Of a DNA stretch of 62,770 nt, positions 3,360-55,734 are shown piece after piece. Position 1 is the stretch's first letter, and each line of letters opens with the position of its first letter. The notes below the pieces were generated by a model. That model had not been told where the DNA came from. It did no database searches and worked only from the letters and a program-made list of their open reading frames with translations. Source of the stretch: a virus. Lineage: Duplodnaviria > Caudoviricetes. Where the stretch lies: positions 1-62,770 of the IMG/VR virus record IMGVR_UViG_3300028423_000363; one strand, given 5' to 3'. A program made the translations under genes and the position numbers.

Positions 3360-3425
3360 AACATTTCGGCGATATGATTTGCGCCTTTATGGATTGAGTG
3401 ATTAGCGTAAATTATATTGCGTGTT
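3360..3425. repeat. attC-like site (66 bp)
   Basis: AAC-ATTTCG-GCGATATGATTTGCGC-20 nt loop-GCGTAAATTATATTGC-GT-GTT. Confidence 0.75.
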
Positions 3426-3460
3426 ATATGCCGATAGGGAACTGTAAAAATTAAGAAGAT

Positions 3461-3703
3461 ATGAAAACATTTAAAGTAAATACTGTGCAAGATATGATTG
3501 ACTGCACGAATGAAAACAACTTAGATAATTTTTTAGTAGATTTAAAAAAGATTATTGAAGCAGCTCATTATTTTAGAGAGTTAACTGATAATATGGCTGA
3601 GAAACAAAACATTTCTAAAAAATTAACGGAACTGAAAAGCAAAGGATTTGAATGGATTGACGATAGCAAACACGAAATAACTATCGAATTAAGCAGTAAG
3701 TAA
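3461..3703 (+). CDS. Cassette-encoded hypothetical protein
   Basis: 80 aa, between GTTATATGC (3423) and GCATATAAC (3720). Confidence 0.75.
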   Translation: MKTFKVNTVQDMIDCTNENNLDNFLVDLKKIIEAAHYFRELTDNMAEKQNISKKLTELKSKGFEWIDDSKHEITIELSSK

Positions 3704-3855
3704 TTTTTATTGCATATAACACGTGATAACATCATATATTGAACTAAAACATTATTAATCATGTAGTTACATAATATAAGTAGTTCGGAAGTGAACTTTT
3801 TATTTTTTAATTAAGTGATGAAGAGTTTGTTTTCGAACTACACTAAAATAAGATT

Positions 3856-4071
3856 ATGACGACATTTCAAGATTTACTAAAATTAAAAACAAAAAAAGGA
3901 GTTCCTTATAAAATAACTTCTATAGAGAAAATCAAAGACACAAAAAAATGGCATAAAAAAAAGAAAGATTATACTTATTCTTGGGAAATAATAACTAAAT
4001 TTGACGGAAATATAAGGTTTAAACTAACCTTAAACAACAACGACATAATAACAAATCAAGAGAAACTATGA
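3856..4071 (+). CDS. Hypothetical protein
   Basis: 71-aa ORF, translationally coupled to the next gene (ATGA overlap). Confidence 0.65.
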   Translation: MTTFQDLLKLKTKKGVPYKITSIEKIKDTKKWHKKKKDYTYSWEIITKFDGNIRFKLTLNNNDIITNQEKL

Positions 4072-4394
4072 GTGATTCAGTAACTAAGTTTTATGATTCA
4101 TTAACATCCGAAACTATTAGTGGCGATTTAAAATTAGCACATGACATGAAAAACAGTATAAAGCCTAAACATTACGAATTAATGGGAGTAGAAGTTAAGG
4201 ATATTTTAGAAGAGGTTTTAGATAAAGTCGAAAAAAGCAATTTCAATATGTCTTTAAATGAGGCAGGATGGTATCAACAAGCTATGCAATACTTTCTAAG
4301 ATTCTACGCTAAGAATGGTTTAGAAGACTTAGAAAAAGGTATAGAAGCTATGAATATTTTAGTTAAAAGTATAAAAACAAAAAACAATGAGTAA
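4068..4394 (+). CDS. DUF3310-like (SaV-like) phage protein
   Basis: IKPKHY...EVKD...YFLR...KNGLEDLEKG signature. Confidence 0.7.
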   Translation: MSDSVTKFYDSLTSETISGDLKLAHDMKNSIKPKHYELMGVEVKDILEEVLDKVEKSNFNMSLNEAGWYQQAMQYFLRFYAKNGLEDLEKGIEAMNILVKSIKTKNNE

Positions 4395-4644
4395 GAAAAA
4401 AGATTTACCAAACCACAAGATTGCAGTATTAACAAGTTTGTTAGTAGATGAATTAGATAGTCTTAAACCAACATCTGATAAAGGACAAAAAGTATTGAGT
4501 CTTGGTCGTGAATTGCAGGAAGAGTTAATGCCTGTATTAGATAATTTATACACTCTCGAAGGAGTAAGCAAAACAACTTATCTCTCAGACCTTGCAAATA
4601 AGGTGGACACAGTAATCAGAAAAAACTATAGAAAAATAAATTAA
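4387..4644 (+). CDS. Hypothetical protein
   Basis: 85 aa, overlaps both neighbouring genes in the operon. Confidence 0.7.
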   Translation: MSKKKDLPNHKIAVLTSLLVDELDSLKPTSDKGQKVLSLGRELQEELMPVLDNLYTLEGVSKTTYLSDLANKVDTVIRKNYRKIN

Positions 4645-5276
4645 TGAAAGTAGAATTATTAGACGTATTCGGAAATGATCTAATGATAGCTAATGCAGCT
4701 AGAGTTAGTTACGGAAAATCAAAAAATTTCTTTGACGAAAAAGACGAGAAGCTTTTAAGGTTTTTAGTTAAACACAATCATATATCTCCGTTTTTTCACC
4801 CTAAGCTACAGTTTAGAATAACTTGCCCTATATATGTCGAAAGACAATTAAAGAAAACAACTATAGGTGTTGACGAAAATAGTATAAGCGGTAGATATGT
4901 AGACTTTAGTGATACTTACACTAGAATAGAAAATTGGAGGAAGCAATCAACATCAAGTAAACAGGGAAGTTTCGGTAGTGTCGAAAATCAACATAAATGC
5001 TCTCTAATAGAAGATAATATTATAGAGGTATGCAAGAAGGCTTACGAAGATTTAATTAACGAGGGCGTCTCTAAAGAGCAAGCAAGAAGTGTTTTGCCAT
5101 TAAGTTTAAACACAACAATGATATGGACAGGAAGTCTTCAGGCTTTTTTAAGGCTTTGTCAATTAAGATTAAAAGAAGATGCTCAAATAGAAACAGGAGA
5201 TGTTGTTCGTGAAATGTTGAACGAAGTCAAGAAGTCTGGTAGTTTTGATAAAACATTATTGATATATGATTTGTAA
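4644..5276 (+). CDS. thyX: FAD-dependent thymidylate synthase ThyX
   Basis: ANAARVSY, HISPF, RQL...NSISGRY, KEQARSVLP, LRLKEDAQIE motifs. Confidence 0.92.
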   Translation: MKVELLDVFGNDLMIANAARVSYGKSKNFFDEKDEKLLRFLVKHNHISPFFHPKLQFRITCPIYVERQLKKTTIGVDENSISGRYVDFSDTYTRIENWRKQSTSSKQGSFGSVENQHKCSLIEDNIIEVCKKAYEDLINEGVSKEQARSVLPLSLNTTMIWTGSLQAFLRLCQLRLKEDAQIETGDVVREMLNEVKKSGSFDKTLLIYDL

Positions 5277-5382
5277 AAGAAAAATATTAAAATGTATCGC
5301 TACAGTAACAGTGTTTTTTAGACGTTCAAGTTTGGCATATGATTATAGAATTGCCATAGCTAAATATTCAGTTCAAACATTT

Positions 5383-5412
5383 AAAACCCCCTTTGATTAG
5401 GGGGTTTTTTTT
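5383..5412. terminator. Bidirectional intrinsic terminator between convergent replication and virion blocks
   Basis: AAAACCCCCT-TTGATT-AGGGGGTTTTTTTT. Confidence 0.85.
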
Positions 5413-8400
5413 ATTTAAAAATATCATTTAACTCGTCTTCACTTCTAAACAAATCAGAATTGATATCTTTACCTGTATTCTGTTCTACCGACTTGATTAT
5501 ATCTTTTATAGATTCAGCTCTTTTACTTGAGTTAGCAGCACTTCTAGCTTGTTGATAATTCAAGGCTTTCCTTATTAATCTTGGTGCAGGTATTCTTATT
5601 GTTGATAGTAAAAACTTAGTTAAGAATTCAGGCATCTTTTCCTTAGCCTTTCTTCTTGTTTCAAACTTTTTAGCAGATTTTACTCCAGGAATTTCACCTG
5701 TTTTAGAAGCGTTTTCTATGAGACCTATACTAGAGTTAGCAAACGAACTATAAGCTCCTAACAGTTTTGTACTTGATTTCAATATACTATAAGAACTAAG
5801 TATTAAATCTCCGTTTTCATCTCTAGGAATTATAGAGTAAGTTAACGAGTCTCTGAAATTGTAAGAGTTGTCATCTCTAAGACCTACATCTACACCGAAA
5901 CCTACGTTTAGTGATTCTATACCTGTTGAAGCTAAAACCTTTTGTAAGTTCCCAAGCCTTCTCATAACAAATACATTAGCAGCTAAAGACATCCCTTCGT
6001 TATAAAGCATTTTACCAAACTCTTTATCCTCTTCTTCGTCATACTCGCTTTCAAGACCAAACACACCCATTATAGTATCTAAAACAGTTCCGTATGCAAA
6101 TTGCATCCCAAAGTTATAAGCACTCATTCTAAATAAAGTAGCTCCTAATAATCTAGCACCTCTACCTCTAGACATATCTCCTCTTTTTCCTGCAAGTGCA
6201 TCAACACTTTTGACTATAGAAGAAAATTCAGCCATTTGAAACCTCGTCATATACTTATTAAACATTTTGAGTATATTCGCTCTTTCTTCAGGATTTAATT
6301 GAGAAAAAGGAGTGCTTTCAAAAGGGTTTAAAGACGAAAATCCTTGAGATAAAACTTCATCTGCATATCTAACCGATTCATTAAGAGGTTCTATTACAGA
6401 ATCATAATATATATTATCCTCTTTCATTCTGTTAACATCTAAAGCCTTACCTGTAAGTTCTTTAAATCTAGTTTTAAAACTACCCTCCCATAAAGGAATA
6501 GCTACAGCTCTATCTGGTGCTTCTAATAATATCGAGTTAACACTTTTTATTAACCTGCCGATACCTGGCTCTTTCTTAGAAGACGTTAACTCTCCTGCCT
6601 CAACTTCTTTATACAAACTTGTCGAAGCTACAAATATTCTTGATGATTGAGCAGAGTTACCTATCCTAGCTATAAACTCTAGGTCTTCATAACTATCTCT
6701 AGCCCCTTTACTGGTTCTGTTTTTTAGCCCATAAGCTAATTCTTTAGGGTTGTTAATTATAGCAAAAGACAAGTTACTCGTTAACTCCACTCCTGCCCTC
6801 ATAGGGTCTGCTAATTGATTGTAATAACCAATCTCATTTATCCGTTTAGCAAACTTTTCGGCAAAGCTATTACTTGTATAGTAAGATGAAGCAAACTCAT
6901 TCCTAAAAACCTTTGTAAATAACTCTTTAGATGCTTCGATAAATACTCTTCCGTTTTCATCTATATTTTCATTATTTAAAGCCCTATTCATAGTTGAATT
7001 AAACTCTTTTATAGCAGGCAACATATGATAACTTCTGTATATTTTGTCAACATTTCGGCTGAAATTTTCTACATAGTTGAAATCTAAAGGATTCACACCT
7101 GCTGTTCTTTCTATTAAAGAGCCTAACTCAGAAAAATAAGCACCTCCTTCTAAAAATGAATCAGCTTCTTTTATTATACTACTTAAGTCAACTTTCTCTT
7201 TAGTTCTCACATTTAAAGGTACATAATAGTCGAATATTTCAGGAGTTTTACCTTCCATAGTTGCAACATCTATAGACATTTGCTTCCCTTTATTATTGTT
7301 GAAATTCTCTATTATGTCAAAAACTTGCTTCTCATCTTTCTTTAGGCTTTTTATTGATGCCTCTACATCTATACTTCCATCGTTTTTCTTAGGCAACTCT
7401 CTGTAAATATCCTGAACATAAGTTAAGTTTTCTCTGTATCTGTCATCCCTATTGGACTTAGCGTAAACTTCAGATGCTTTAATATATTCTTCAGGTCTAA
7501 TTCTTTTTTTAGTGTCTATGTTTTTGTTTATTTCATAAAACTTCTGAAGCTGTATTAAGTATATCTTAGCATTAAACTTCATTTTGTTAACTCTAGACCT
7601 AGACGCTTGAAGATTAACCTTGAGTACCTTCTCTCTTTTTACATTGAATATATCTAAAGCAGCAACTCCTTCTCCTTTTTGTTTGTTAATAGAGTAAGAA
7701 CCAAAACCTTTAGCGACAGATTCCATTCCCATGTACTTATAAAGCTTACCACTTTTCTTTCCTTTCAAAATGTTATCTAAATCTCTTAATTGGTTTCTCT
7801 CGGCATACCTAAACATTCTGTTTTCAGCGTCATTTTTAATAGAATTTACAGCCGCATCATAAGAATCTCTAAGTAAATTTCTATATTTCACCCCGTCTAG
7901 CTCTTGCTGAATCCCTTTATTGTTTCTGTCAGCCTTTACACTATTCATAATACTCCTAACACGAGGAGTGATAGCACCTCCTTCAGAGATTATATCTATA
8001 TTATTATTTAATACTTCTAAATCTGTATTTGTAAACCCTTTAAGCTCATCTTTTGTTATAGACTTTATAAATGCAAAATCAGTTATTTTATCTTTAGCTA
8101 CATTCTCTATTGATGTTTTCTTTTTGGATTCAAACTCACTTAATAACCCTGCATCAACCTCTTTCTTATCTTCTTTAGTTGATACTTCTTTTTCTACACT
8201 AGGTTGATTATTAAATATTTTAGCAAACTTTCTTGTTGTAGGCTTAGATTTTATAGGATTAAATCTATTACCTTTAACATTGTTAACATACTCTTCAAAC
8301 TCTAATAAATCGTTCTCTGATAACAGTTCAGGGTTTATTTGTAAAGACCTCACAAGTTCTCCATTCTGAGGTATATATTTTCCACCTCTATTTTTTTTGT

Positions 8401-11083
8401 AAGAGTTGATAGCTGTCTTTGCGGATTTTTTAACTTCTTTTATTCTTTTAGATTTATCTTTAGGTTTAACCTCTTTGAAATCTTCAGGTTTGGCGTCTGG
8501 AGTTACTTTTTTTGAATTATCAATATCAGACTCTTCTATAATGTTAGCCTCATTAGGTATAACATCTTTTGACACTACTTTTTTATTGTCATTTTTAATT
8601 TCTAAAAAAACAGACTCTCCTTCACCTATATCCCTTCTAGCATAAGTAACATTTTCTTTTGTTTCTGATTCTTCTAAAACAACTTCATCTTCAACTATTT
8701 CTTGAGGTGCTTTATCTCTATCTTTAAGAGTTTTTAGTATTTCGTCTTTTTCTTTTATATCCTCTTCGGCTAATTTCTTTAAATCACTTAACTGCTTTTT
8801 CTTAACTTTAATATCTACCTCTGTATTTTCTCTTATTTCTTTAGCTTCTTTTCTATATGAAGATATATTCTTGTCTAAGACCTTTAAAGTTTCAAACTCG
8901 TCTTTAGTCGCTTTTTTTATATTTTGAGCATTAGAAAGTATAATATCTCTATTCTTAGTAGTTAAATCTATTATCTCGCTTTTATAAGCATCCATAGACT
9001 CTTCGCTTAAACCTCCTTTGGCTAATTCAGCTTCTACCTCTAACACACGCTCTGCATTCTTTTTTAAAGCTCTTTTTTCTTTGATAGTTGATATCGACCT
9101 TCCTGCCATACCTGTAACAGCTCCGAAGCCTGGAAGTAAAAAACCAACTAATCCTCCTGCCACTAAAGGGTCTGTAACATTGTCAAAAATATTTACATTT
9201 TCTTTTCTAAGTATTACAGCGTCATTAAAGTTTTCTAGCATTTGAACACCTCCTTCTTCTATAGACTCACTTGCGGCAGGCATCAGGTATTTTTTAGCTC
9301 CTTTTACCGTACTTCTCACAGCTTTATCTCTTACTGATTTAGGTGCTGATTTATAAACTCTAGAGAAACCTCTAAGTCTAGAAACAGTAGGTAGAAAACC
9401 TAAACCTGCTTCAGTTACACCTGTCATTAATGATGATGTTATTATCTGAGCTTTGTTGTACTCAACTCCTTGCTCTATCTCTTGCTGTATTTGTCTATAT
9501 TTGTTTCCTGTTGTAGAACCTCCTATTATAGTAGCACCAATTAAGGGGTTTGATGTAGCTGCTGCAACATAAGGTAGCGTTTCTCCTGTTGTTGTTAAAG
9601 TATAAGTAAGATAATCGTCAAAAGAATCAGCGTCTGTTATACTAAAATCTTTCTGAACTTCACCTCTTAAATCCTCAGACCATTCATTTAATTTATCTGA
9701 AAATTTCTGAGTAGCCCAAGCTCTAAATTTAACAACATTACCAACTAAAGGTACATCCTCCGTTATACTTCCTAATATTTCTTTATCATACATTACTTGC
9801 AGGTCTGCTAACCCACCTATTATATTCAGTCCTGCGGCTGTTGTTTTAGCTCCTGCTGTGGCAAACATATTATAAGACCTATTAAATAAGTCCATTTCCT
9901 CTGATAAAGTACCTATTTCTGCGTCTGTATTCTTTATTTTTTCCTGAATACTTTTAAGATCTTCTTGATACTCGTTAGAGGCTTGTATTTTAACGTCTCC
10001 TTCGTTTATAGAGAATAACACTCCTTCTTCTTTAGCATCGTTTAAAACGCCTGTAATTTGATTTGTTAGTTCTTCGTATTCTTTCTTTAAAGATAACCTT
10101 TGTTCTTCAGTAGAAGCCCACTCTTCATCAATAAAAGTCATAGACTCTATTTCTTTCTTTCTGTCAACTAAAGGCTTTACCTCTGTGAAATATGTATTGG
10201 CTTTTTCTTTAAACTCGTTTTGAAGTAAATTAGCAGACTCCACAGACTTAGATAACTCTTCATTTTTAGCTATTATACTGTTTTCTGAAAAATCAAATAA
10301 GTTTTCTCTATCCTCTACAGGTAACTCGTTAAGGAAGTTTCTTTGTTTTTTTTCAACTAACCCTTTCTTGAGTTTTTCTTTTTTTATCTCTATAGCTCTT
10401 TGACGAAGAATTTTATTATAGTCTTCAGGTTTGCTACCTTTAAGCTTTTCACGAAGTTCACTTTCAGCTTGGTCTAATTCCTCACTGATGTAATTGTAAG
10501 CATTTGTATCTCTTGGTAATAAATCTAAATCACCTGTTAAACCTCCTGTGCCTGCAACTGGGTCACTATTAAAGAAGTTCATAAAGCTATCAGCAACAGT
10601 GTTATAAGCTAAACCTATCTTATCAAAAGTATCAGGCTCTAACTCTTTAGCTATAGTTTCTTCTATAGTTTTTAAATCTTCATCTGTTACTTTAGTTGAC
10701 TCTTTCCAATTCCTGTAATTTCTTACCGTAGATGAATCCAAAGGTTGAGTAACGTCGTTTGTCGTTTTCAAATCTTCGGAATCCAAAGAAACAGTATTTA
10801 TTTTCGGAGGTGTACTCGAATCCTTTTCTGTTTGTTGAGTAGATAAGTCTGAATCGTCTTTTTTTTTTACATCGCTAACATCCCCAAAATATGCTTCTTT
10901 AAACTGATTAGGCGTAAGCGTTGTCATCTCGTTATTATTGAGATATGTAAAAAGCTCATTAAAGTTATCATCTTTAAGACCATACTCTCTGCTAAACTGG
11001 TCAAAAGACAAGTCAGTCATTTTATTTTGAGATAGGTAATCGTATAACTCTTTTCTTTTTATAGGATTATTTTGCTTAGCCAT
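5411..11083 (-). CDS. Very large internal virion (ejection) protein
   Basis: About 1890 aa (likely start MAKQNN at 11083). Helical and charged, with a Gly/Ala-rich hydrophobic middle. Last gene of a podovirus-type virion operon. Confidence 0.65.
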   Translation of the reverse strand: MAKQNNPIKRKELYDYLSQNKMTDLSFDQFSREYGLKDDNFNELFTYLNNNEMTTLTPNQFKEAYFGDVSDVKKKDDSDLSTQQTEKDSSTPPKINTVSLDSEDLKTTNDVTQPLDSSTVRNYRNWKESTKVTDEDLKTIEETIAKELEPDTFDKIGLAYNTVADSFMNFFNSDPVAGTGGLTGDLDLLPRDTNAYNYISEELDQAESELREKLKGSKPEDYNKILRQRAIEIKKEKLKKGLVEKKQRNFLNELPVEDRENLFDFSENSIIAKNEELSKSVESANLLQNEFKEKANTYFTEVKPLVDRKKEIESMTFIDEEWASTEEQRLSLKKEYEELTNQITGVLNDAKEEGVLFSINEGDVKIQASNEYQEDLKSIQEKIKNTDAEIGTLSEEMDLFNRSYNMFATAGAKTTAAGLNIIGGLADLQVMYDKEILGSITEDVPLVGNVVKFRAWATQKFSDKLNEWSEDLRGEVQKDFSITDADSFDDYLTYTLTTTGETLPYVAAATSNPLIGATIIGGSTTGNKYRQIQQEIEQGVEYNKAQIITSSLMTGVTEAGLGFLPTVSRLRGFSRVYKSAPKSVRDKAVRSTVKGAKKYLMPAASESIEEGGVQMLENFNDAVILRKENVNIFDNVTDPLVAGGLVGFLLPGFGAVTGMAGRSISTIKEKRALKKNAERVLEVEAELAKGGLSEESMDAYKSEIIDLTTKNRDIILSNAQNIKKATKDEFETLKVLDKNISSYRKEAKEIRENTEVDIKVKKKQLSDLKKLAEEDIKEKDEILKTLKDRDKAPQEIVEDEVVLEESETKENVTYARRDIGEGESVFLEIKNDNKKVVSKDVIPNEANIIEESDIDNSKKVTPDAKPEDFKEVKPKDKSKRIKEVKKSAKTAINSYKKNRGGKYIPQNGELVRSLQINPELLSENDLLEFEEYVNNVKGNRFNPIKSKPTTRKFAKIFNNQPSVEKEVSTKEDKKEVDAGLLSEFESKKKTSIENVAKDKITDFAFIKSITKDELKGFTNTDLEVLNNNIDIISEGGAITPRVRSIMNSVKADRNNKGIQQELDGVKYRNLLRDSYDAAVNSIKNDAENRMFRYAERNQLRDLDNILKGKKSGKLYKYMGMESVAKGFGSYSINKQKGEGVAALDIFNVKREKVLKVNLQASRSRVNKMKFNAKIYLIQLQKFYEINKNIDTKKRIRPEEYIKASEVYAKSNRDDRYRENLTYVQDIYRELPKKNDGSIDVEASIKSLKKDEKQVFDIIENFNNNKGKQMSIDVATMEGKTPEIFDYYVPLNVRTKEKVDLSSIIKEADSFLEGGAYFSELGSLIERTAGVNPLDFNYVENFSRNVDKIYRSYHMLPAIKEFNSTMNRALNNENIDENGRVFIEASKELFTKVFRNEFASSYYTSNSFAEKFAKRINEIGYYNQLADPMRAGVELTSNLSFAIINNPKELAYGLKNRTSKGARDSYEDLEFIARIGNSAQSSRIFVASTSLYKEVEAGELTSSKKEPGIGRLIKSVNSILLEAPDRAVAIPLWEGSFKTRFKELTGKALDVNRMKEDNIYYDSVIEPLNESVRYADEVLSQGFSSLNPFESTPFSQLNPEERANILKMFNKYMTRFQMAEFSSIVKSVDALAGKRGDMSRGRGARLLGATLFRMSAYNFGMQFAYGTVLDTIMGVFGLESEYDEEEDKEFGKMLYNEGMSLAANVFVMRRLGNLQKVLASTGIESLNVGFGVDVGLRDDNSYNFRDSLTYSIIPRDENGDLILSSYSILKSSTKLLGAYSSFANSSIGLIENASKTGEIPGVKSAKKFETRRKAKEKMPEFLTKFLLSTIRIPAPRLIRKALNYQQARSAANSSKRAESIKDIIKSVEQNTGKDINSDLFRSEDELNDIFK

Positions 11084-12680: not shown

Positions 12681-12692
12681 TTTTATTATTTA

Positions 12693-13642: not shown

Positions 13643-13660
13643 ATATACAAAGATACAAAA

Positions 13661-19484: not shown

Positions 19485-19508
19485 TTGAATTTATACAAAG
19501 ATACGAAT

Positions 19509-19538: not shown

Positions 19539-19576
19539 ATCAAACATATATTATGTTTTGCCTATCTAATTATCAG

Positions 19577-40396: not shown

Positions 40397-40494
40397 ACTG
40401 TTTTTTTATTATTATTTACAAAGATACGAAGAATAAAAATTAGTTTAATTCATTGAAAAATGTATATTTGCTATATAATCTTAAATTTATAATA

Positions 40495-46860: not shown

Positions 46861-47073
46861 TCCATGTAAACAAATTATTAATATTAAAACATTTGAATTA
46901 TGTCAAAGTATGTAACCTATTTAACTAGCAATGAAGTTGATGATGTCTTTAAATTTAACAACGGTATGCACATACGTTTCCCTAAAATTATGAATATGTC
47001 TGAAAAGGATGTTTAAAATTGGTACTCAAAAAATCAAACAATTTAATAAATAATAACCTTTAAAACTAAAACT

Positions 47074-47673
47074 ATGGAAACTTTAAAAATGCCATTAAGT
47101 CAAGCAAAACAAAACACAAAACAAGCTAACAAGTCAGAAAAACAAAAGCTTAAAAAGATTAACGATCAATTAAAGCAAAGTAAATTAACTATAAAAAATA
47201 ATTGGTTAGAAGATACGCAAAGTGTATCGGCGCTGGTTAAATATGTTAGAAAAAATACTGAGATTGTTAAGCCATTAATCGACGCAATAAATAAAAAATA
47301 TGATGTTAATTTCAACGTTGGTAGCCTTAACGCTTCTGTTTTAAAGTTCGGTTACTTACATGAATTAAACCAAGTCAATTTAGATGGCGAAATCATTAAG
47401 CCTAAAAAATACTTTAATATTTCGTTCATGCTAAAATGTTTAGAACGTAAAGCAAAATTTGACTCAGACCTAGACAAATTTGCACCAGTAAGTAAAAAAG
47501 CAACTGAAAAAAATCTCTTAAGAAAATACTCGAATATTATACATAAAACGAGTTTAATTTTTGGGGATGATGTTCACACTTTTGTTGATCAACTAATTGA
47601 CCAGGATAAAACAATGCAGCAAATAGTTAACCGAGTTAAAACAGAATTTAAAACCCCACAATTAAACAAATAA
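47074..47673 (+). CDS. Early hypothetical protein
   Basis: 199 aa, first sizeable ORF after the putative terminus. Confidence 0.7.
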   Translation: METLKMPLSQAKQNTKQANKSEKQKLKKINDQLKQSKLTIKNNWLEDTQSVSALVKYVRKNTEIVKPLIDAINKKYDVNFNVGSLNASVLKFGYLHELNQVNLDGEIIKPKKYFNISFMLKCLERKAKFDSDLDKFAPVSKKATEKNLLRKYSNIIHKTSLIFGDDVHTFVDQLIDQDKTMQQIVNRVKTEFKTPQLNK

Positions 47674-47684
47674 ACCAACATTTT

Positions 47685-47742
47685 AGGCTTAATCAATAGC
47701 TTTAAAGCGTATTGCGTAGGTTCGCGACCTGTTAAGCCTCAA
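47685..47742 (+). ncRNA. tRNA-like mini-RNA (acceptor stem plus T-arm, no D-arm)
   Basis: AGGCTTAA/TTAAGCCT closing stem, TAGG-TTCGCGA-CCTG T-arm, and central CAATA-GCTTTAAAGCG-TATTG hairpin. Confidence 0.45.
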
Positions 47743-47859
47743 TAAATTATAAAAGTTTAACATCACGTTAACAATTTAACTGAAATACTTTTGTAATTTT
47801 ACCAAAACAAAACAAGATCTTTGAATTTTTAGATAGTTATAATTTTAAGTTACTTTAAA

Positions 47860-48310
47860 ACGGTATTCAAGGCACGGCATGACCCTACTTTTTTACCAGG
47901 TTAATACAAAATTTGTTTTTTGTTTATACCTTAAAGCCTTAAGCGTTAACTATACTAATTTGCCTACACTATACACAAATAAAAAATATTAATATAGCTT
48001 TTTAAATTGCTTTATTACTTACTAGGATAAAGATTTTAAAGTACTTTTTAGGCTTTAATTATTTAATAAGCATTATTATATTAATAGATTTTACTTGTTG
48101 AATTGTAGGAGCTTGCATTATTATTTTGGCGGCTAAAATAGTCAAGCGTCGTTTGTTAGCGGCGTAATGCGTAGACCTTGTAGGCCAGGGCGGATCCGAA
48201 TTTATATTTTATATATTATAAACTAGGTAATAGGTTTACATGATCCTAAAGACAAACAAAGTCTTGAAAAATATTAACAGGTGCAAGTTATTGAGTTAGC
48301 TTGCATCATC
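47860..48310 (+). ncRNA. Candidate large structured ncRNA
   Basis: ORF-free, locally GC-richer, with many nested and crossing complementary segments. Confidence 0.4.
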
Positions 48311-50537
48311 TATTTTAAAACAAATACTAACTTTTAAAAAAAATAAAAATGGAAAATCTAAAAAAACAATATCGCAAAAAATATGGTTATTCACCATCTG
48401 ATAATGAAATTTTAAATCTTTATTTTCAAGGTAACTTAAACCTAACAAACAAGCAGGAAAATGAAATAATAAAACATTTTAATCTTTAAAAATAAAAAAC
48501 ATGAGTGAGTTAATAGACAAAATAAATCAAAAAATAGACTTGGGTGGTTTAATATCTAGAGGTAGATATTATAAAAGATTTTGTGATGACAAAAATTATG
48601 TAGATTTTTATCATAACTACAAACCAAACGAAAAAAAATTAAGAGAAAATTACATAGACTTAATAAAATACTTTTTAGAAGACAAAGAGTTAACTAAAAA
48701 TATTGAGAGTTATCTAAAGTATAAAGAACCTTATTTTAAAGAGCAAAGAAAAAAAACAACAAACAATATGTACACTTATATTGTTGTAGATGAATTGCTA
48801 ACAATTATAAGAAAATTCAAATCTAAACAGATAGATAAAAACCTAAACTTTTGTAACTAAAATACACTAAACAAGTTACAAAAAACAACAACTTTAAAAC
48901 TAAAATTATGCATAATTCAGAAGTAAGCAAAAAAGCATTTTACAAATTGTTTGACAGCTCAGACGATTTACAATTAACAGAAAATAAAGAAACTTATATA
49001 ATGGAGAGTTATTATAATGTTGACTTAGACGTGAGCGGAGAGGCTATTTATAACCATGTCAGCTCAGTATGGCAATATTATATCGTAGATATTAACCTTT
49101 AAAACATTTAAGTTATGAAAGTAGAATTTTATAAAATAGCAACTCACAAAGGAATTGATAAACAAGGTATTGAAAGCCCATTTAAAGAATATATTTATAA
49201 TATTAGATTGGTAGGTAAAGACTATTTTAATAAGCCATATGAGTCCGATTTTTATCAATATTGTACAGTACAAAAAAACGCAAAAGACGCTAAAAAAGAT
49301 ATTGAACAAAGATTAATTAATAACGGCGTATTTGATGCTGCACTTGATGGCCAGGATATAAACCATTTAATGTAAAAAAAATATTAACTTTAAAACCTTA
49401 GACAAATGACAATTTACGATTTCAACCAGTATGATAATGACGTTGTAGAATATTTCAGAGAAAATTATCCTGACTGGGATAATGTTAAAAAACAAGACTT
49501 GCAAATTTGCTGCAATGGTACTCTTTTTGTGGGTAATACAGAATTTAAAACACCTATCAAACTCAGTGATTACGAAATTTAAAACCTAAAACAAAATGGA
49601 AATAACAAAATGCACACATGTAACAGCTACAGAAAAGAAACATTTAAAAGCATTTTTAAATAGCGGAAAAACAGACGCAAAAATAAATAGAAAATTTTAT
49701 TCTATTATCTCAGGAACACCTCAAGCAGATAAATTTCTATATAAAATTAGAATAACCACACCAATGAAGGATGATTATGGCAATAAGAAATTAGACACGC
49801 AAACAATAGAAGTTTTAAATTAAAAACATAAAACAAATGAAAATGAATACTGAAAAAATAATTTACAATAATTTAAGCATAAGAAAAATCATATATCGTT
49901 TACCTATAAACATGAGTAAAATACATAAAAAAAGATACATAAATAATTGCATTGAAGTTTATAAAAATGAATCTAAAAATTTTAATTTAGACTTATGTCA
50001 ATCATTAAGAAACGAGAATTTTAATTTAATTAAAAATTATTTATATAATAAATAAAAACCTAAAACAATGAGCAAACGAAAAAGAATAATAAAGACATTT
50101 AAAAGCCACAATAATAAAATGATGGCTTTGACAAAAAAAATAAACGACCGACGCAAATTGCTAACAAAACAAGAGCAAGTAAAGTTTAATATAAAACTAG
50201 AGTTTAAACACCCTGAAATATTTTCGTAATGAAACCAGAAGAAAAAGATTTATTTTTTAATCAAGAACAATTACCTCAAAACGTAAAGCAAATAGTTTTC
50301 GAAATGAGTGAAGTAGAAATTAACGAGGGATTTGATTATAAAAAATGTAACAAATATCAATCACAACTAGAAAAACTAGGCTACACTTTTGACTATGAAC
50401 TAGACGCAACGCCTTACAATTTACAAAAAATAAAACAATGAAACCAGTAACAAAAACACTTAACACAGGTTTAAAAGTAACACAAACCTACTGCAAGAAG
50501 AAACAAACCGTAATAATAACCGTAAATAAATAAACAA

Positions 50538-50885
50538 ATGGAAACTTTTTTAAACACACTACACACAGACATAGACTTAACTTACATCTATAATCAAGAC
50601 ATGACCTTCGAAGAGTTTGAAGAGGCTGTCACAGAATACATAAGAGGTGAAGAAATTATATATTATTATAAAGCTATGGAGTTATTGCAAGAGCACGACC
50701 CAAGCCTTAATCATAGCTTAGAATTAGCCAACGAATTAGGTTACACAACGGACAATATAAATAGTGAATTGTTAGCAACCTTATTATATCAAGACATATT
50801 ACAAGATGAATGGTTTGAAATAAGAGACGAAGTACAAGAAAAGTTTGAAGAACTTGAAGAAGAAGAACTAAACGAAACATTTTAA
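50538..50885 (+). CDS. Highly acidic early protein, Ocr-like DNA-mimic candidate
   Basis: 115 aa, very D/E-rich, with EEIIYYYKAMELL motif and acidic tail. Confidence 0.5.
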   Translation: METFLNTLHTDIDLTYIYNQDMTFEEFEEAVTEYIRGEEIIYYYKAMELLQEHDPSLNHSLELANELGYTTDNINSELLATLLYQDILQDEWFEIRDEVQEKFEELEEEELNETF

Positions 50886-51432
50886 AAGACAAGACAATGA
50901 AAACATTTGAATTACAACCACTAAAAAGAAAATCCTTTTATGGCAAAGCTCAAGTATTACAAACGCCTGAAGGACATTTATACTTAGACAGCTACAACAC
51001 TAGAGTAGCAACCTACACAAAGGAAGGACATTTCGAGGTAACAAAAGACGAAAGCCTTTTAACTAATACAACACTTCGACATATAAGAGCTTTTCAGAAC
51101 TATGTAGGACTAAAACCACAAACAAAACAAGAACTTTTAAAATCTTAGACAAATGACAATACAATTAGCAAAAACAAACAAAGAAACAATAGGAGTTTAT
51201 AGAGACCACTCCGAAAAAATAGGACATATAAAGCCTAGCGATGTTGCTCAGGCTTTTGATTGGAATGGTGCAGACGTACTCAACTTCTTTGCCGAAACAT
51301 TAGTTGAATGTAACTACCATACAGAAGCTATACAAATAAAAGAAATGATAAAGTTAAATAACAAAACACAATTTGATTTTAGACCATCACTTTAAACTTA
51401 AACATTTTAACATAAACTAAAAACCTAGACAA

Positions 51433-51942
51433 ATGAAAAAATTATTTTTAATCTCAGTAATATTAATTACTGCAATCGCAAAAGGACAAACACAAACCAA
51501 CAGACTAGATTTAATCTTACTACAAGATATTAAACTAGCTATGCAAGGACACGAAAAAACTAGTAAAGATAGTTTTACTACAGATATTAGACTTTCTGCA
51601 AGGCTAAACAGTACACAAAATTACACAGGTCATTGGTTCTTAGCTCCAGAGATAGAATACGCAGATCTCAACATTAGATTTATTAGATATAGCGCAAACA
51701 TAGGTTATAAGTTTAATAGATTTCATGATGAAATATCTTTAAGTATATCAGGTGGTTATGGTTTAATTGATAGAGAGGGACAAGCTTATCAATCAATAGG
51801 TATAGATGTTTTCTTAGAATACGAAATAACTAAACGATTATCTTTAACATTAAATAACCAAACACTAGAGAGAAAAGATGTTAAGAGTAAAGACATTGTT
51901 AATTCTTTTTTCTTAGGTGTAAACATTAAACTATTCAATTAA
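51433..51942 (+). CDS. Signal-peptide outer-membrane beta-barrel-like protein
   Basis: MKKLFLISVILITAIAKG signal, alternating beta strands (YSANIGYKF, IGIDVFLEY), terminal FFLGVNIKLFN. Confidence 0.6.
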   Translation: MKKLFLISVILITAIAKGQTQTNRLDLILLQDIKLAMQGHEKTSKDSFTTDIRLSARLNSTQNYTGHWFLAPEIEYADLNIRFIRYSANIGYKFNRFHDEISLSISGGYGLIDREGQAYQSIGIDVFLEYEITKRLSLTLNNQTLERKDVKSKDIVNSFFLGVNIKLFN

Positions 51943-53793
51943 TAATTAAATCTTAGACAAATGGCAATTTTAGAATTAAACAAAGAACAATTAAACAACT
52001 ACTTAGAGAAATTAGTATTAACAAGATTCGAATATCTACATAACTTAGAAAGTTTTATATCTGAAGATATAGGTCTAAGTATAAAGTTACAAAGAAAAGA
52101 AGCAGACCTTGACACTTTAAGTGACTTTTGCTTAATAGGTAATATTAATATAAATGGTGCTGACTTAGCTTTTATAGATATATACTACTTGATAGATAAT
52201 AAATTAAACTATTTAATTACAGAAGTAAACGTAGAATATACTTAAATCTTAGACAAATGAAATTAGACTATTCAAAAATCGAAAATGTAGAAGTAGACGG
52301 AATAAATGGTTGGGATTATCCTGACTTTTCAGACGCATACATAGCAAGTGCTGACTACAACGGCAGAGGAATGACCGAAGAAGAGTTAAACATTATTAAC
52401 GAAGACTCTCAGTTTGTTTTTGAGCAAGTAGAAAGCCATCTATTTTAGTATGCAAGACAATAAAAAGTTTAGGTTAGCAGTAGCAATAATATACTTAACT
52501 GTGTTTTTATTGTTACTGTCTATAACCTTATCGCAATTCAAGCTAACATCTAATATCAACATAACAATGTTATTAGGTTCTCTGACAATAATATCATTTA
52601 TCCTTTTTAGGAAAGCAGTATATCAATATTTAAACAAAGATTAATTATGGATTTAGACGTAACACATAATATTAAAATATGCGACTTCAAGCATATTAAT
52701 GAAGCCATCTATGAAATAGAGATAGGCGAGACAATTCACGATTGTAGAAAATTTACAGGCTTCGTCAATAATCAAAAAGTAAGAGGTTTAATAACTAAAG
52801 ACAATAAAAAATTACACTCAATAACTTATGAGCAGTCATATAGATAACGTACTAAGACTCGTTAATAAAACAAAATCAAAAATAAAAGTTGATAGTAATA
52901 AACGCTTACAATGGAAGTTATCAGCGTATAAAGTTTTACTTGAATTAACGACGTGGGACATAAAGTGTGAAGAGCTTAACTATTTACTTGACGGAGACTT
53001 CGACAATTTACACGAAGCAAAAACAATATCAATAGGTAAGATAAGTTACACAGATTCAGTGTTATATTTCAAAACATTCTTGTATGAAGGAGAACTTTTC
53101 GTTATATTTACCACCTCAAGAAATGATTTAGGTGTGATATTTAAACCAAATAGCGATAAATATTATAACCTGCCTTTGGTTTACTGTTTAGTAGATGACA
53201 AAGTTTACGATAATATATACGACTTTGAACACATTACAGATCACAAAGGAAACAATATAGATATTAAAAACTCAAAACTAATTATTACAGACTTTACTTA
53301 TGGATAGAGACGAATATTTCGAAGAAGAATACAGAAATAAAGAACAAGACCTTAGACTTAAAGAAATGGAATTAGAAGAGCAAATGTACTTTCACGAATT
53401 TAAAAACGAAGGCAATTTCTTTGGAAGACAAAAGTTCACTAAAAAATACTAAAAAATGGAACTATTTAAGAACACAATTAAACAGGCGATCGAGAAGTAC
53501 GACTTTACCAATCAAATTGAGCATTACGACCAGAAAATATTTGAGTTAAGCATCGGTGATATGCCAATGGAAATCTTAAACGAATCTGTAGGTAACGACA
53601 CGCTTATTTTGGAGTTGATATTTGACTTCAGAGGAGAAATAGAGGGCGATGATGTTAGGGTTTGTGAAGACTTATATTTAAGAGCTGTTAGCCTGTTTTT
53701 ATTTAACAATGGCGAAGAGCTTAAATTTGACACTGACTTGTTTTATGATGATGTCAAAGATTCTTTAATTCAATCTATGAATGATTTTGTAAT

Positions 53794-54135
53794 GTGGCAA
53801 TAAAAAATAAAAAAATGACAGAAGCAGATAAAATATTAAATAAGCATTTAACTGATAATGAAGCTAAATATATAGCTGATAAAAGATTTCTTTACGACAG
53901 TTTGATAAACGCAATAAATGAAGCATTAGCTACATCTCGTGTTAGCAGTAGCTTATTAGAAATAACACTTGAAGAATGGGAACACACTTGTGACGATGGC
54001 TGCTGTTATTCTTACGGTGAAGATATATATCTAAATGGTGAGAAATTAGACGAGCAAAATGCTGAAGATAGTAGGAATGCATTAACAGCAGTACTTACAA
54101 GGTTAGGTTATGACGTTGAAATAAATTACCGCTAA
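53794..54135 (+). CDS. Hypothetical protein reading in frame into the first cassette of array 2
   Basis: GTT 53941 is an in-frame Val (ATSRVSSS); stop lies in GCTAAC. Likely start ATG 53815. Confidence 0.7.
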   Translation: MAIKNKKMTEADKILNKHLTDNEAKYIADKRFLYDSLINAINEALATSRVSSSLLEITLEEWEHTCDDGCCYSYGEDIYLNGEKLDEQNAEDSRNALTAVLTRLGYDVEINYR

Positions 54136-54200
54136 CTGGTGGCGTATAAGATTTGCGCCTTTTCAGCCGAGTAAGTTCAGCGTAAATTTTATGCGCTGTT
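54134..54200. repeat. attC-like site (67 bp)
   Basis: AAC-TGGTG-GCGTATAAGATTTGCGC-21 nt-GCGTAAATTTTATGCGC-T-GTT. Confidence 0.78.
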
Positions 54201-54249
54201 ATGCACTGGCACGGATTAATAAATAATAACTTAAATTCAACTTAATAAA

Positions 54250-54543
54250 ATGAAAAAGCCTACAACAGAGTGTTCAATTTCGGTACAAAAAAAATCAGAA
54301 ATAACTCGTGTATTTTTAGAAAGTCAAGGATGGAAATTGATTGAAGAAAAACCACTATTTGAATCTTTTGAGCATACTAAAAATCCTTACTTAAAATGCT
54401 CTATTGGATTGTACGGTGGTTTTTCTGTAGTAGAATTACACTGGTGCAACAAAACGCCTGAAAGAGAATTTTCGACAATCAATAACGAACTAACTATTAA
54501 TGATTATCACACAATCATTCGCCTGTTAAATGTACGGGTGTAG
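54250..54543 (+). CDS. Cassette-encoded hypothetical protein
   Basis: 97 aa, between GTTATGCACTGGCAC and GTGCTTGTGCATAAC. Confidence 0.75.
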   Translation: MKKPTTECSISVQKKSEITRVFLESQGWKLIEEKPLFESFEHTKNPYLKCSIGLYGGFSVVELHWCNKTPEREFSTINNELTINDYHTIIRLLNVRV

Positions 54544-54554
54544 TGCTTGTGCAT

Positions 54555-54620
54555 AACATTCCAGTGCTATGAAAAGTGCCTTTAGGGAATAAGTGATTAG
54601 CATTTTTTATAGCACGTGTT
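54555..54620. repeat. attC-like site (66 bp)
   Basis: AAC-ATTCCA-GTGCTATGAAAAGTGC-20 nt-GCATTTTTTATAGCAC-GT-GTT. Confidence 0.78.
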
Positions 54621-54667
54621 AGCTGACGAAGTGAACAGTAAAATATTAATGGATTAAAAAAAGAATT

Positions 54668-55258
54668 ATGAAAAATTGGACTGGAAATAAAAACAGTATT
54701 TATAAAACTTTAGGTTCGAGTAACCACACAGAAAAAAGCCGTGAGCAACATGACTATTATGCAACCGACCCAAAAGCAGCCGAATTACTTTTGGAATTAG
54801 AAAGCTTTGAAAATGTATTAGAGCCTTCTTGTGGTGAGGGACATTTAAGTAAAGTTTTTGTTGATGCAGGAATTAATGTTACAAGTAGCGACTTAATTGA
54901 TAGAAATTACGGAACTCAAAAAAGTTTTTTTGACTACGAAAAATGGAATGGCGATATAGTTACAAACCCACCTTACAAATATGGGCTTGAATTTGTAGAA
55001 CACGCTTTGAAAATAATACCTAATGGAAATAAAGTTGCGATGTTTTTAAAACTGCAATTTCTTGAAGGTAAGAAACGAAAAAAACTTTTTGTAGATAAAC
55101 CACCTAAAAAACTTTACGTATCTAGTAGTAGGCTGCTTTGTGCAAAAAACGCTGATTTTGAAGGTATGCGAAAAGGTGGCGGTAGTGCCGTTGCTTACGG
55201 CTGGTTTGTTTGGCAAAAAGGTTTTAAAGGACTTTCGCAAATAGAATGGTTTAATTAA
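54668..55258 (+). CDS. Cassette-borne small DNA amino-methyltransferase (probably N6-adenine)
   Basis: DYYATDP, SAM-binding LEPSCGEG, catalytic VTNPPY. Confidence 0.8.
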   Translation: MKNWTGNKNSIYKTLGSSNHTEKSREQHDYYATDPKAAELLLELESFENVLEPSCGEGHLSKVFVDAGINVTSSDLIDRNYGTQKSFFDYEKWNGDIVTNPPYKYGLEFVEHALKIIPNGNKVAMFLKLQFLEGKKRKKLFVDKPPKKLYVSSSRLLCAKNADFEGMRKGGGSAVAYGWFVWQKGFKGLSQIEWFN

Positions 55259-55274
55259 TATTTTATTGCAGGCT

Positions 55275-55562
55275 AACGTAAAAGTATAACAGTAGTAACG
55301 GAAATATTAATAACTAAATTTTTTAAATATGAAAGCAAAACTAATATATAATGGTGAAGAAACTGCAGAAACACAAGAAGTTGATTTACCACAAATACCA
55401 AGGGTAGGCGACGGTTTTTGTGTTTTAATAGACAATGTAGAAAAGCGAGTATTTGCTTCTTGTGTGGTGGAAAGCATAGACTGGTGGATTGAAAATGGTA
55501 AACTGCGAAATGTAGAAATTTATTTAAAAGACGAAGAATAGTTATTACTGTTATGCATTGTT
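55275..55562. repeat. attC-like site with a complete ORF in its loop
   Basis: Arms identical to 3020-3312. Confidence 0.75.
55329..55541 (+). CDS. Hypothetical protein inside the attC-like loop
   Basis: 70 aa (PQIPRVGD motif); stop TAG overlaps the right arm. Confidence 0.75.
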   Translation: MKAKLIYNGEETAETQEVDLPQIPRVGDGFCVLIDNVEKRVFASCVVESIDWWIENGKLRNVEIYLKDEE

Positions 55563-55670
55563 ATATATCTGGTGGTGGCTAGTAAGACCTTAGCGGATGA
55601 TGAATGCACTTGATGCGATTCTGGTTTGGCGAAAATATGGGTTTATTAACCTGTGCCACCACTTGTATAT

Positions 55671-55734
55671 AACTGGTGGCGTATAAAATAAGCCAGCGCA
55701 ACACTGGTTAATTCGGCTTGTTTTATGCGCTGTT
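55671..55734. repeat. attC-like site (64 bp)
   Basis: AAC-TGGTG-GCGTATAAAATAAGCC-20 nt-GGCTTGTTTTATGCGC-T-GTT. Confidence 0.78.

Follow-up and report, generated by a model that had tools for sequence, protein, structure and literature searches.

Coding-strand hairpins that alternate with and enclose single genes in a phage genome: a probable RNA-level punctuation of cistrons that may double as recombination joints

The window (the whole stretch of DNA that was analysed) comprises 62,770 bases and is the whole of the IMG/VR virus record IMGVR_UViG_3300028423_000363 (Duplodnaviria; Caudoviricetes), with a CheckV completeness estimate of 100%. Its IMG/VR topology class was linear, no end repeats were found, and the G+C content was about 31%. 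The − strand carried most genes at ~5.4–44.5 kb, whose products serve in virion structure and lysis (portal, large terminase, crAss-type muzzle domain, holin and endolysin). At 1–5.3 kb and 45–62.8 kb most genes lay on the + strand and had replication and accessory functions; their products include a DnaD-like loader, a primase/helicase, ThyX, Erf and MazG as well as a 5'-3' exonuclease, and small open reading frames (ORFs) without assigned function are numerous there. Within the + strand blocks, small ORFs alternated with conserved hairpins in two arrays, one at the left (L) and one at the right (R), and these hairpins are the subject of this study.

The arrays followed a grammar on the coding strand, YAAC-N3-6-[16-bp stem]-loop-[stem]-NT-GTTR, in which the loop was either short (units A–D) or held a whole ORF. 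Units A–D were composed of TAAC, a spacer of 4–6 nucleotides (nt), a stem of 16–17 bp, a loop of ~20 nt, the return stem, 1–2 nt and GTTA/G. Each ORF between units had its own inverted repeat, in which the sequence after the GTTA of one unit paired with the sequence before the TAAC of the next; the linking segments are hereinafter referred to as connectors. All units in the window lay on the same strand as the flanking genes. In the list below, pairs are Watson-Crick (WC), G:T or A:C, bit scores refer to R1, a covariance model built from units A–D alone, and flank scores come from a permutation over all 38 + strand ORFs of the window, in which the true flanks of an ORF were compared with mismatched flanks. 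Helices marked MFE and centroid were present in the minimum free energy (MFE) and centroid structures of the RNA fold of 54120–55580.

2706–2844, +, unit E: TAAC 2710–2713, 5' arm from 2720, 3' arm 2823–2833, GTTA 2836–2839; ~11 bp pair
2753–3030, +, connector with ORF 2773–3021 (82 amino acids, aa): inverted repeat 2753–2771 / 3012–3030; 17 WC, 1 A:C, 1 other; flank score 13.75, with 0 mismatched pairs that high
3019–3313, +, F unit L with ORF 3073–3291 (72 aa) as cargo: TAAC 3019–3022, arms 3029–3044 / 3291–3306 (14 WC, 2 G:T), TGTTA 3309–3313
3310–3362, +, connector hairpin L, ORF-less: GTTAC 3310–3314 / GTAAC 3358–3362, inner stem 3317–3326 / 3345–3354 (9 WC, 1 G:T); RNA fold −19.5 kcal/mol, z −3.39
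3355–3431, +, unit A, short loop: upper stem 3369–3384 / 3405–3420, lower stem 3355–3363 / 3422–3430; 89.9 bits on + versus 14.9 on −; RNA fold −30.8 kcal/mol on + versus −10.5 on −
3415–3728, +, connector with ORF 3461–3703 (80 aa): repeats 3415–3431 / 3712–3728; 15 WC, 2 G:T; flank score 13.5, 0.07% tail of mismatched pairs
3712–3773, +, degenerate TAAC...GTTA hairpin after ORF 3461: weak, 13.7 bits on the − strand, local fold
3780–3841, +, 24-bp hairpin at the end of array L, upstream of ORF 3856: 18 WC, 6 G:T, 0 A:C; −7.8 kcal/mol as DNA
54129–54206, +, unit B: TAAC 54133–54136, upper stem 54141–54158 / 54180–54197 (14 WC, 4 G:T); 83.0 bits on + versus 13.1 on −
54197–54558, +, connector with ORF 54250–54543 (97 aa): repeats 54197–54212 / 54543–54558; flank score 10.75, 3% tail; MFE and centroid
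54550–54626, +, unit C: upper stem 54564–54579 / 54600–54615 (14 WC, 2 G:T); 80.5 bits on + versus 14.8 on −
54618–55277, +, connector with ORF 54668–55258 (196 aa; methyltransferase-like, phrog_799, E 1.2e-60): repeats 54636–54650 / 55254–55268 and GTTAGCTG / CAGGCTAAC; flank score 13.25, 0.07% tail; MFE and centroid
55274–55563, +, F unit R with ORF 55329–55541 (70 aa) as cargo: TAAC 55274–55277, arms 55284–55299 / 55541–55556 (16 bp, seen in the centroid fold), TGTTA 55559–55563
55560–55673, +, connector hairpin R, ORF-less, 75-nt loop: outer stem 55560–55568 / 55665–55673, inner stem 55571–55579 / 55655–55663
55666–55740, +, unit D: upper stem 55678–55694 / 55715–55731 (14 WC, 3 G:T); 66.9 bits
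55731–56381, +, connector with ORF 55797–56369 (190 aa), end of array R: repeats 55731–55744 / 56368–56381; flank score 12.25, 0.8% tail

The two F units were identical over about 23–26 nt at both ends, and their arms paired with two G:T. These identical arms surrounded unrelated ORFs at the two places, since the cargo proteins (72 and 70 aa) gave no BLASTP alignment with each other. The junction motifs also supplied stop codons. TAA was taken out of TAAC by ORF 53794 (53794–54135; TAAC 54133–54136) and by ORF 2773 (TAAC 3019–3022), and in both F units (3289–3291 and 55539–55541), as in all F units found elsewhere (TAGTTATTACTG), the 3' arm begins with the last G of the TAG stop. Among units A–D, compensatory changes were found at 9 of 16 pairs, one G:U was present in all four units and another in three. 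No T run followed any of the four, and an identity as intrinsic terminators was rejected for this lack; ordinary terminators were present at other sites (56687 and 58049).

A sequence-only reading of the window had described seven hairpin sites, in which nearly all stem mismatches are G:T on the + strand at two to three wobbles per stem, and had related them to the attC sites of integrons. The hairpins are present, although the count could not be matched one to one: four correspond to the tight family A–D, and 3317–3354, 3780–3841 and 55560–55673 are other hairpins of the same arrays. The site it placed at 2711 was a weak local hairpin (z −0.24), but it becomes a fifth family member, unit E, if a 3' arm at 2823–2839 is used (28.8 bits, E 0.0012, default filters); the x12 wobble is lost there, and the loop contains the start of ORF 2773.

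The predominance of G:T was confirmed by a hairpin scan that was strand-symmetric, penalising G:T and A:C alike. At a strict threshold, 14 hairpins were detected in the window, and the five intergenic ones (3369–3420, 3780–3841, 54142–54196, 54564–54615 and 55679–55730) contained 16 G:T and 0 A:C. At a laxer threshold 46 hairpins were detected. Eight of these lay in the zones 2636–3855 and 54100–56400 and held 19 G:T and 0 A:C, whereas the 38 hairpins outside the two zones together held 30 G:T and 28 A:C (14:11 in 15 hairpins of other + regions, 16:17 in 23 hairpins of − regions). Five block-shuffled genomes gave similar numbers of hairpins, with G:T roughly equal to A:C. Base composition predicted a ratio of ~53:47, for which we calculated p ~6e-6 for 19:0. 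A tally of 20 stems of the two zones, including long-range ones, yielded 224 Watson-Crick, 33 G:T, 1 A:C and 3 other pairs, with stems partly picked from + strand folds, some overlapping, and the F arms counted twice. Because the ratio was 19:0 in the two zones and about even elsewhere and in shuffles, the G:T bias on the + strand is real, strong and confined to these zones. Units A, B, C and D have 3, 4, 2 and 3 wobbles, respectively, in agreement with the number first noted.

Selection on the fold of a single strand, as the sequence-only reading had proposed, was borne out, and both the mismatch counts and the folding energies point to the + strand. The energies of both strands, which that reading had called for, showed the + strand to be the more stable as RNA and as DNA. 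For units A–D, RNA folds ranged from −27.1 to −30.8 kcal/mol on the + strand (z −2.4 to −4.5) and from −10.5 to −20.2 kcal/mol on the − strand, and DNA folds from −10.5 to −14.7 and from −5.2 to −11.7 kcal/mol, respectively. The R1 model likewise scored the + copies at 67–90 bits and their − strands at 13–15 bits. Stability was thus strong as RNA and weak as DNA (−7.8 to −14.7 kcal/mol across the hairpins).

In addition to the local hairpins, long-range helices were found to enclose ORFs. In the flank-repeat test exactly seven of the + strand ORFs stood out (2773, 3073, 3461, 54250, 54668, 55329 and 55797), with scores of 10.75–13.75 against 7.49 ± 1.36 for mismatched flanks (0–3% tail), while the other 31 did not. 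The seven are consecutive within the arrays, and in each the 5' flank pairs with its own 3' flank, in accordance with the cassette-like logic suggested earlier. When 54120–55580 was folded as RNA, hairpins B and C appeared together with all three of the long-range helices, in the MFE and in the centroid structure alike. A family-wide search was also performed, in which the 14 nt just upstream of a connector were used to seek a complementary partner ≤1300 nt upstream. An enclosing helix was found in 62 of 152 contexts, against 1 of 152 when arms were swapped between loci. The family helix is 16 bp long, and positions 14 and 15, which were not used in the selection, paired in 60 and 59 of the 62. 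These helices contained 885 Watson-Crick, 99 G:T, 4 A:C and 4 other pairs, with position 12 being G:T in 58 helices and position 7 in 32, over 48 distinct 5' arm sequences; YAACG lay ≤14 nt upstream of the helix in 55. The internal loop is asymmetric, a 5' spacer of 3–6 nt facing one of 2 nt on the 3' strand of the helix. The enclosed stretch measured 104–1269 nt (median 348), and an ORF was present in 58 of the 62 loops, the longest ORF covering a median of 82% of its loop. Since the wobble positions 7 and 12 are the same in both, units A–D are the short-loop members of a family whose long-loop members wrap genes. In the family as a whole, the loop is short (as in units A–D), ~40–130 nt long, or holds a whole cistron (as in the two F units); the helix has a TATGA/TTATA core and, at a distance of four pairs from the inner end, a G:U that is nearly invariant.

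The same grammar was present in other phages. A search of 100 other phage loci with R1 yielded 53 matches (E≤0.1), which confirmed the family membership of units A–D directly. Among 45 distinct sequences, AAC and GTT were invariant (45/45), and the 16-bp stem contained no bulged bases, 98.1% of its cells being paired. For the same 45 sequences 98.4% of all cells paired, against 72.7% in shuffles (0 of 500 shuffles reached the observed value), and 15 of 20 pairs changed on both sides. The covariation score was 0.597 against ≤0.095 for slid controls; the alignment was fitted to the model and so favours structure, a bias that the slid controls share while falling far below. An exact pattern of units A–C gave no match in IMG/VR, and 22 loci found via the primase/helicase (34–61% identity) contained no R1 match at E≤1, their strong hairpins being ordinary terminators or a coding tandem repeat. 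Megablast of positions 1–20000 against a phage collection, which sought close relatives, also gave no match.

Both halves of the F arms were found in four IMG/VR contigs. Most matches to the F-arm 16-mers were due to chance: IMG/VR stretches with the F 5' arm numbered 26, of which 6 had the YAACG context and 4 the 3' arm, and of 75 stretches with the 3' arm, 4 had the exact 5' arm. In metagenomes, 11 of 16 contigs with the 5' arm contained both arms, and 3 of the other 5 ended at the contig edge. The same F arms held at least eight different cargo ORFs, and the 72-aa cargo was seen in seven different upstream contexts. Among seven genomes carrying F arms, no protein family was present in three or more except the primase/helicase (in three).

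The units of these loci are joined by a 29-nt connector hairpin, GTTR-N5-TCGTTTTAATG-N5-YAAC. Its exact pattern, identical in many phages, was detected in at least 120 viral contigs and in 77 genome records, of which ~52 were Bacteroidota as judged by titles, including both marine Flavobacteriia and gut Bacteroidales. The matches listed comprised 192 distinct instances, and in 148 of these every one of the five variable pairs was Watson-Crick, with 36 different stems represented. Among the matches listed, 176 connectors were hairpin-like; relative to their flanking ORFs, 110 of them lay in sense orientation and 3 in antisense orientation, and 63 had no clear orientation. The connector stems vary while the asymmetric loops stay conserved, and a locus carries 1–3 copies. 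In locus L037, a hairpin with the same loop and register has a U8 tract and resembles an intrinsic terminator. In L033, a GC-richer element of ~190 nt occupies connector positions between cassettes three times (985–1172, 1457–1650 and ~2080–2270); the first two copies start with GTTGGTTG and end with CAACCAAC, and no Rfam match was obtained for it. Rfam gave no match for the whole window at gathering score or for 44000–62770 at E≤1, and a search of L033, L035, L037 and L040 returned one unrelated near-threshold match, DUF805b (L033 368–400; 35.5 bits versus a gathering score of 35.6).

These data bear on the possibility that the G:T pairs are a mutational footprint: inverted repeats with a double-stranded DNA function, for example protein-binding palindromes, would have undergone C-to-T deamination while their coding strand was displaced, with no single strand selected. 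Such deamination would turn G:C into G:T on the coding strand, and the + strand of the array regions does have a G>C skew. Hairpins outside the arrays, however, were unbiased in both + and − regions, the wobbles kept fixed positions over the 48 distinct arms while their neighbours covaried, and variable stems with conserved asymmetric loops are the reverse of a double-stranded DNA operator. A footprint of this kind is hardly credible.

Homology between related sequences was found to break at the elements. The F unit L cassette shared 94% identity with L033 over 290 nt (window 3029–3318) and nothing outside, with borders at the arms, the left one at the arm and not at G|TT. Sequences related to the window were found in marine plankton metagenomes. 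Two marine runs held relatives, whose contigs covered the units and not the cassettes 54164–54527, 55347–55528 and 55711–56347, parts without cover carrying no information on their own. Loose ends or alignment starts of metagenome contigs coincided with TAAC at 54132/3, 55273, 55673 and 56378 and with GTTA at 55562/3. One contig of 1852 nt was identical to 55603–55673 and unlike the window directly past TAAC, and in another case homology began at AAC 56378, the end of array R. In the loci selected by the hairpin, 137 internal end points of homology were counted, and 25 lay ≤10 nt from an exact connector hairpin, against 0.8% of random positions, a 23-fold enrichment. Because homology ends cluster at the junctions, the elements are seams of mosaicism. 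That stems are recombination breakpoints had been part of the sequence-only reading and was supported at arms, at TAAC/GTTA and at junction hairpins; since stems coincide with evolutionary breakpoints, they are not RNA signals alone.

Breakpoints directly past TAAC could also be left by selfish miniature hairpins of the REP/PATE type, moved as single-stranded DNA by an HUH enzyme (IS200/IS605 or RAYT type) acting in trans and inserted beside a TAAC-like target, with any RNA role secondary. One-strand hairpins with a fixed flanking tetranucleotide, occurring in many copies in unrelated phages (the viral contigs and genome records above, for the connector alone), would be in accordance with this, and IS608 inserts 3' of TTAC. 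On the other hand, neither the window nor the 28 gene families most common near the hairpins yielded a Y1/HUH transposase, the low copy number per locus gives no swarms, and a role in expression is favoured by the strict alternation with ORFs, the 110:3 sense orientation and the way in which cistrons are enclosed. We regard this origin as very unlikely.

Membership of the attC class, as proposed by the sequence-only reading, was not supported. In integrons, the R'' box of attC is RYYYAAC and the R' box GTTRRRY. Here the AAC/GTT pair stands at the hairpin base and is all that is kept of these boxes; the four flanking positions in units A–D were in no case RYYY/RRRY. In the account of attC given in PMC6393395, extrahelical bases and a central spacer are described as features and the bottom strand as the one used by integrons. 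In the present hairpins an unpaired spacer exists, extrahelical bases are lacking from the stems, and the folding strand is the coding (+) strand, opposite to integrons. The proposal that the arrays are oriented on the − strand adds nothing, as an ORF followed by YAAC...GTTR on the + strand is already the classical top-strand layout. Neither an integrase nor an attI-like partner was found for the attI-like motif that had been placed at the right end, where the array stops at 56371–56395. In attC cassettes the ORF lies outside a compact hairpin of 57–141 nt; here an ORF lay inside the helix in the two F units and in the 62 contexts described above. Complementarity of the cassette 5' end to the sequence before the 3' hairpin was present for the seven consecutive ORFs.

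The searches for recombinases in the window were negative. No match to Phage_integrase was obtained among the 77 window ORFs at E≤1e-3, no integrase in a PHROGs search of the window ORFs, and none among 43 unassigned window ORFs at E≤0.5. Searching with tblastn for 12 Xer/IntI-clade recombinases from related loci gave no match in the window and, among the carriers of F arms, a partial match only (L135). Integrases, serine recombinases, HUH enzymes and RNase III domains all went undetected among the window proteins, even at lax thresholds.

An integron-like system of structure-specific sites was nevertheless considered, in which the + strand would fold as single-stranded DNA (for instance where it templates lagging-strand synthesis, or once an exonuclease has resected the DNA), a tyrosine recombinase of the host or of another element would cut at AAC/GTT, and cassettes would excise and insert. 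The AAC...GTT at the base of every unit (45/45) fits this, as does the pairing of each cassette 5' end with the sequence just before the next YAAC; in integron work by Hall and Stokes, cassettes reportedly look so, with the 5' end complementary to their own end. The cassettes share one orientation, searches of the arrays yielded no promoter, breakpoints coincide exactly with TAAC or GTTA and show the 23-fold enrichment at junction hairpins, one cargo occurs in seven upstream contexts and at least eight cargo ORFs in identical arms, the strand asymmetry holds with DNA parameters, and Xer/IntI-clade recombinases adjoin a hairpin in seven loci; the bracketed non-coding iteron block of L040, described below, would also suit it. 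However, no recombinase was detected in this genome, which CheckV rates as complete, and the carriers have none in common, the favoured strand is the coding one and not the bottom strand that integrons use according to PMC6393395, and there are no extrahelical bases, 98% of cells being paired. Further, ORFs lie within the helices, so that up to 1269 nt would have to be single-stranded, the left border of the cassette shared with L033 is at the arm and not at G|TT, DNA stability is weak, especially for 3780–3841 (6 of 24 pairs G:T, −7.8 kcal/mol), and no 'empty' F hairpin (arms 0–30 nt apart) was found in metagenome contigs. On balance we hold such a system to be unlikely. It is also quite unlikely that the arrays form a phage single-gene cassette system without an integrase of its own, a coding-strand counterpart of the integron. 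In such a system, YAAC/GTTR and the G:U-marked 16-bp junctions would be read by a structure-specific enzyme, the candidates being a host or helper Xer/IntI-clade recombinase or a nuclease/ligase acting on single-stranded DNA or RNA, and single cistrons would be excised and inserted between unrelated lytic phages.

We propose instead an intercistronic punctuation, on the grounds that the coding strand folds, the helices span cistrons and lie in sense orientation, G:U pairs are fixed, stability is high as RNA and marginal as DNA, and no recombinase is present. On this evidence the hairpins probably represent a conserved RNA-level punctuation system of Bacteroidota phages that doubles as recombination joints. 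We infer that RNA is the molecule that folds: helices spanning 104–1269 nt are easy for a messenger RNA (mRNA) and hard for single-stranded DNA. The role is probably that of RNase III-type processing or stability signals. In a polycistronic early mRNA, every small gene would lie in the loop of its own helix, and the units would be linked by connector hairpins, GTTR-y...rc(y)-YAAC, which can themselves enclose an ORF. The 16-bp helix together with the 4–5-bp YAAC(G)/(T)GTTR stem over an asymmetric internal loop would amount to about two helical turns, the shape of an RNase III substrate. As set out in PMC1540722, RNase III substrates measure about two helical turns, with coaxial stacking of short helices allowed, and internal loops confine cleavage to a single strand and leave behind 3' hairpins that are protective. 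The present elements have the ~two-turn helix, the asymmetric internal loop and a sense position between cistrons, the latter presuming transcription. The helices would be cut, or would shield RNA ends and block exonucleases, so that cistrons could persist as separate stable messages.

The helices would also act as joints, because the same short sequences recur between unrelated genes and may allow co-infecting phages to exchange single genes. Such exchange could be carried out by annealing proteins, of which Erf is one, or come about through template switching on the hairpins. A candidate for short-homology exchange at the joints is the Erf encoded in the window, and ERF families recurred in 9 of the 120 hairpin-selected loci listed.

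58117–58740, +, Erf-type single-strand annealing protein (PF04404, E 3.3e-40)

Several observations weigh against an RNA-level punctuation system. A small Xer/IntI-clade recombinase was encoded in 13 of the 120 hairpin-selected loci listed (L146–L265), and 7 of these 13 sit 36–133 nt downstream of a hairpin, past a shared TATnATATAT. These recombinases of 240–296 aa are of the tyrosine type, with Phage_integrase and an N-terminal SAM_4 domain, and their best NCBIfam matches were XerA or integron integrase, all below cut-off.

Recombinase-bearing loci: L208, L222, L253, L151, L150, L190, L258 and six more

In addition, several breakpoints lie at the 4-nt YAAC/GTTR, where there is very little homology, which would suggest a site-specific enzyme rather than annealing. 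In L040, an iteron-rich and apparently non-coding stretch is bracketed by a 10-bp GTTAGCACAC/GTGTGCTAAC repeat and takes a connector position like an ORF, which looks like modularity at the DNA level; the stretch is possibly a modular replication origin. Expression in general does not depend on the system, since only 7 of 38 + strand ORFs are bracketed, and the 3' arm of unit E falls within a coding region. A partner more specific than RNase III is suggested, because RNase III is little sequence-specific and yet the helices keep their sequence and fixed G:U. Moreover, the runs listed for 53800–56500 comprised two DNA runs with small shares and no RNA run. The iteron-like repeats of L040 extend over ~700 nt (reverse strand, ~8200–8935) in AAATTAGTT / ACTAATTTCTGACAGAAAT variants.

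The nearest known systems can be compared on the same points. The RNase III signals of the T7 early genes (R1.1 type) are likewise sense-strand helices of about two turns between cistrons, with an asymmetric internal loop between the upper and lower stems. Long-range stems around a whole functional RNA or ORF are known from ribosomal RNA (rRNA) operons and from ORF-bearing 23S intervening sequences. In T7 the cut leaves protective duplex ends, as PMC1540722 outlines, and in the present phages such cleavage is presumed. Unlike RNase III and rRNA stems, many of the helices here enclose a whole protein-coding cistron, carry conserved TATGA/TTATA, YAACG/TGTTR and fixed G:U, and alternate with a second conserved hairpin; in contrast to the T7 signals, the hosts are Bacteroidota and not enterobacteria.

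In the accounts of PMC2839356 and PMC4122927, the PeSLs (promoter-early stem-loops) of T4-type phages are short, conserved motifs between genes, placed beside variable small ORFs, and serve as exchange points between otherwise unrelated sequences. The present elements resemble them as a motif repeated beside variable small ORFs in plastic regions, with replacement breakpoints at the motif, and exchange at the joints would parallel PeSL-mediated shuffling. They differ in that PeSLs are direct repeats with a sigma70 promoter and a terminator, whereas here no promoter motif was found, units A–D lack a U tract, and the arms are inverted, pair with each other and bracket each gene. Full-text searches of the literature gave no description of such elements, the PeSL papers being the sole analogues.

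With attC the hairpins share a single-strand fold, AAC/GTT at the base with an unpaired spacer above, units of 75–80 nt, co-oriented cassettes without a detectable promoter within the arrays, and a cassette start complementary to its own end. They differ by the lack of IntI, the better fold of the coding strand, the lack of extrahelical bases, ORFs often inside the helix, the loss of the RYYY/RRRY box parts, and their place in a lytic-type phage genome. REP/BIME and IS200/IS605-derived elements are similar as strand-specific intergenic hairpins with a conserved flanking tetranucleotide that secondarily stabilise mRNA. The present elements differ from them in that no RAYT/TnpA was found, the copy number is low, the cistron grammar is strict, and phages rather than host chromosomes carry them. 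We rate the finding as a variant that joins two known kinds, intercistronic processing helices and linker-mediated shuffling. CRISPR-repeat mimicry and transfer RNA (tRNA)-like minihelices were considered and set aside, their lengths and loops being a misfit.

Other candidate signals in the window were distinct from the hairpins. At five early small ORFs (49391, 51138, 51418, 51946 and 52242; window 49366–52278), the conserved stretch AACTTTTAAAAYCTTAGACAAATG leads into the start codon, a signal that differs in kind from the hairpin grammar. TATCTTTGTA has 13 exact copies; 9 are on the − strand, and several of these immediately precede − strand genes. With ≤1 mismatch, 26 matches were found against 15.4 expected, none within the arrays. 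We take it to fit the Bacteroidota −7 box, and it is probably a Bacteroidota-type −7 promoter box of middle or late genes.

13646, 19494, 22107, 27977, 32032, 40417, 43764, 57490 and 59439, −, exact copies of TATCTTTGTA

A −33/−7 promoter pattern had two matches in the window, neither within the arrays. A promoter of the crAss-type virion RNA polymerase was dropped as a candidate, since the translation of ORF 5411–11134 (1908 residues) lacks DFDxD. According to a preprint on phage phi14:2, early transcripts have no common motif upstream, and some intergenic regions are highly transcribed. ARAGORN detected no tRNAs over the window. Two non-coding stretches of ~830 nt (46231–47073 and 47674–48500) lie on either side of ORF 47074–47673 and mark the switch from the − to the + gene block, with a GC-richer foldable part at 48103–48200; they are probably a control or origin region. 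Genes for GroEL (555 aa), GroES (84 aa) and a second protein whose N-terminal part resembles GroES were located at 40453–42355 and 27188–27742. Further, a 72-nt unit is present in four tandem copies (65–73% alike) at 30297–30656, within ORF 30118–31116.

If the proposed reading is true, many phages of a major bacterial phylum would keep accessory and early genes as single-cistron modules in RNA helices, and these helices, as seams of mosaicism, would give the old 'linker' idea of modular phage evolution a testable basis in sequence. The elements would form a new structured RNA family of more than 50 members with strong covariation, and would offer a route to gene boundaries and recently exchanged genes (e.g. 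anti-defence candidates) in uncultured phages. They would also point to an unstudied step of mRNA processing in Bacteroidota, a phylum whose translation start signals are unusual.

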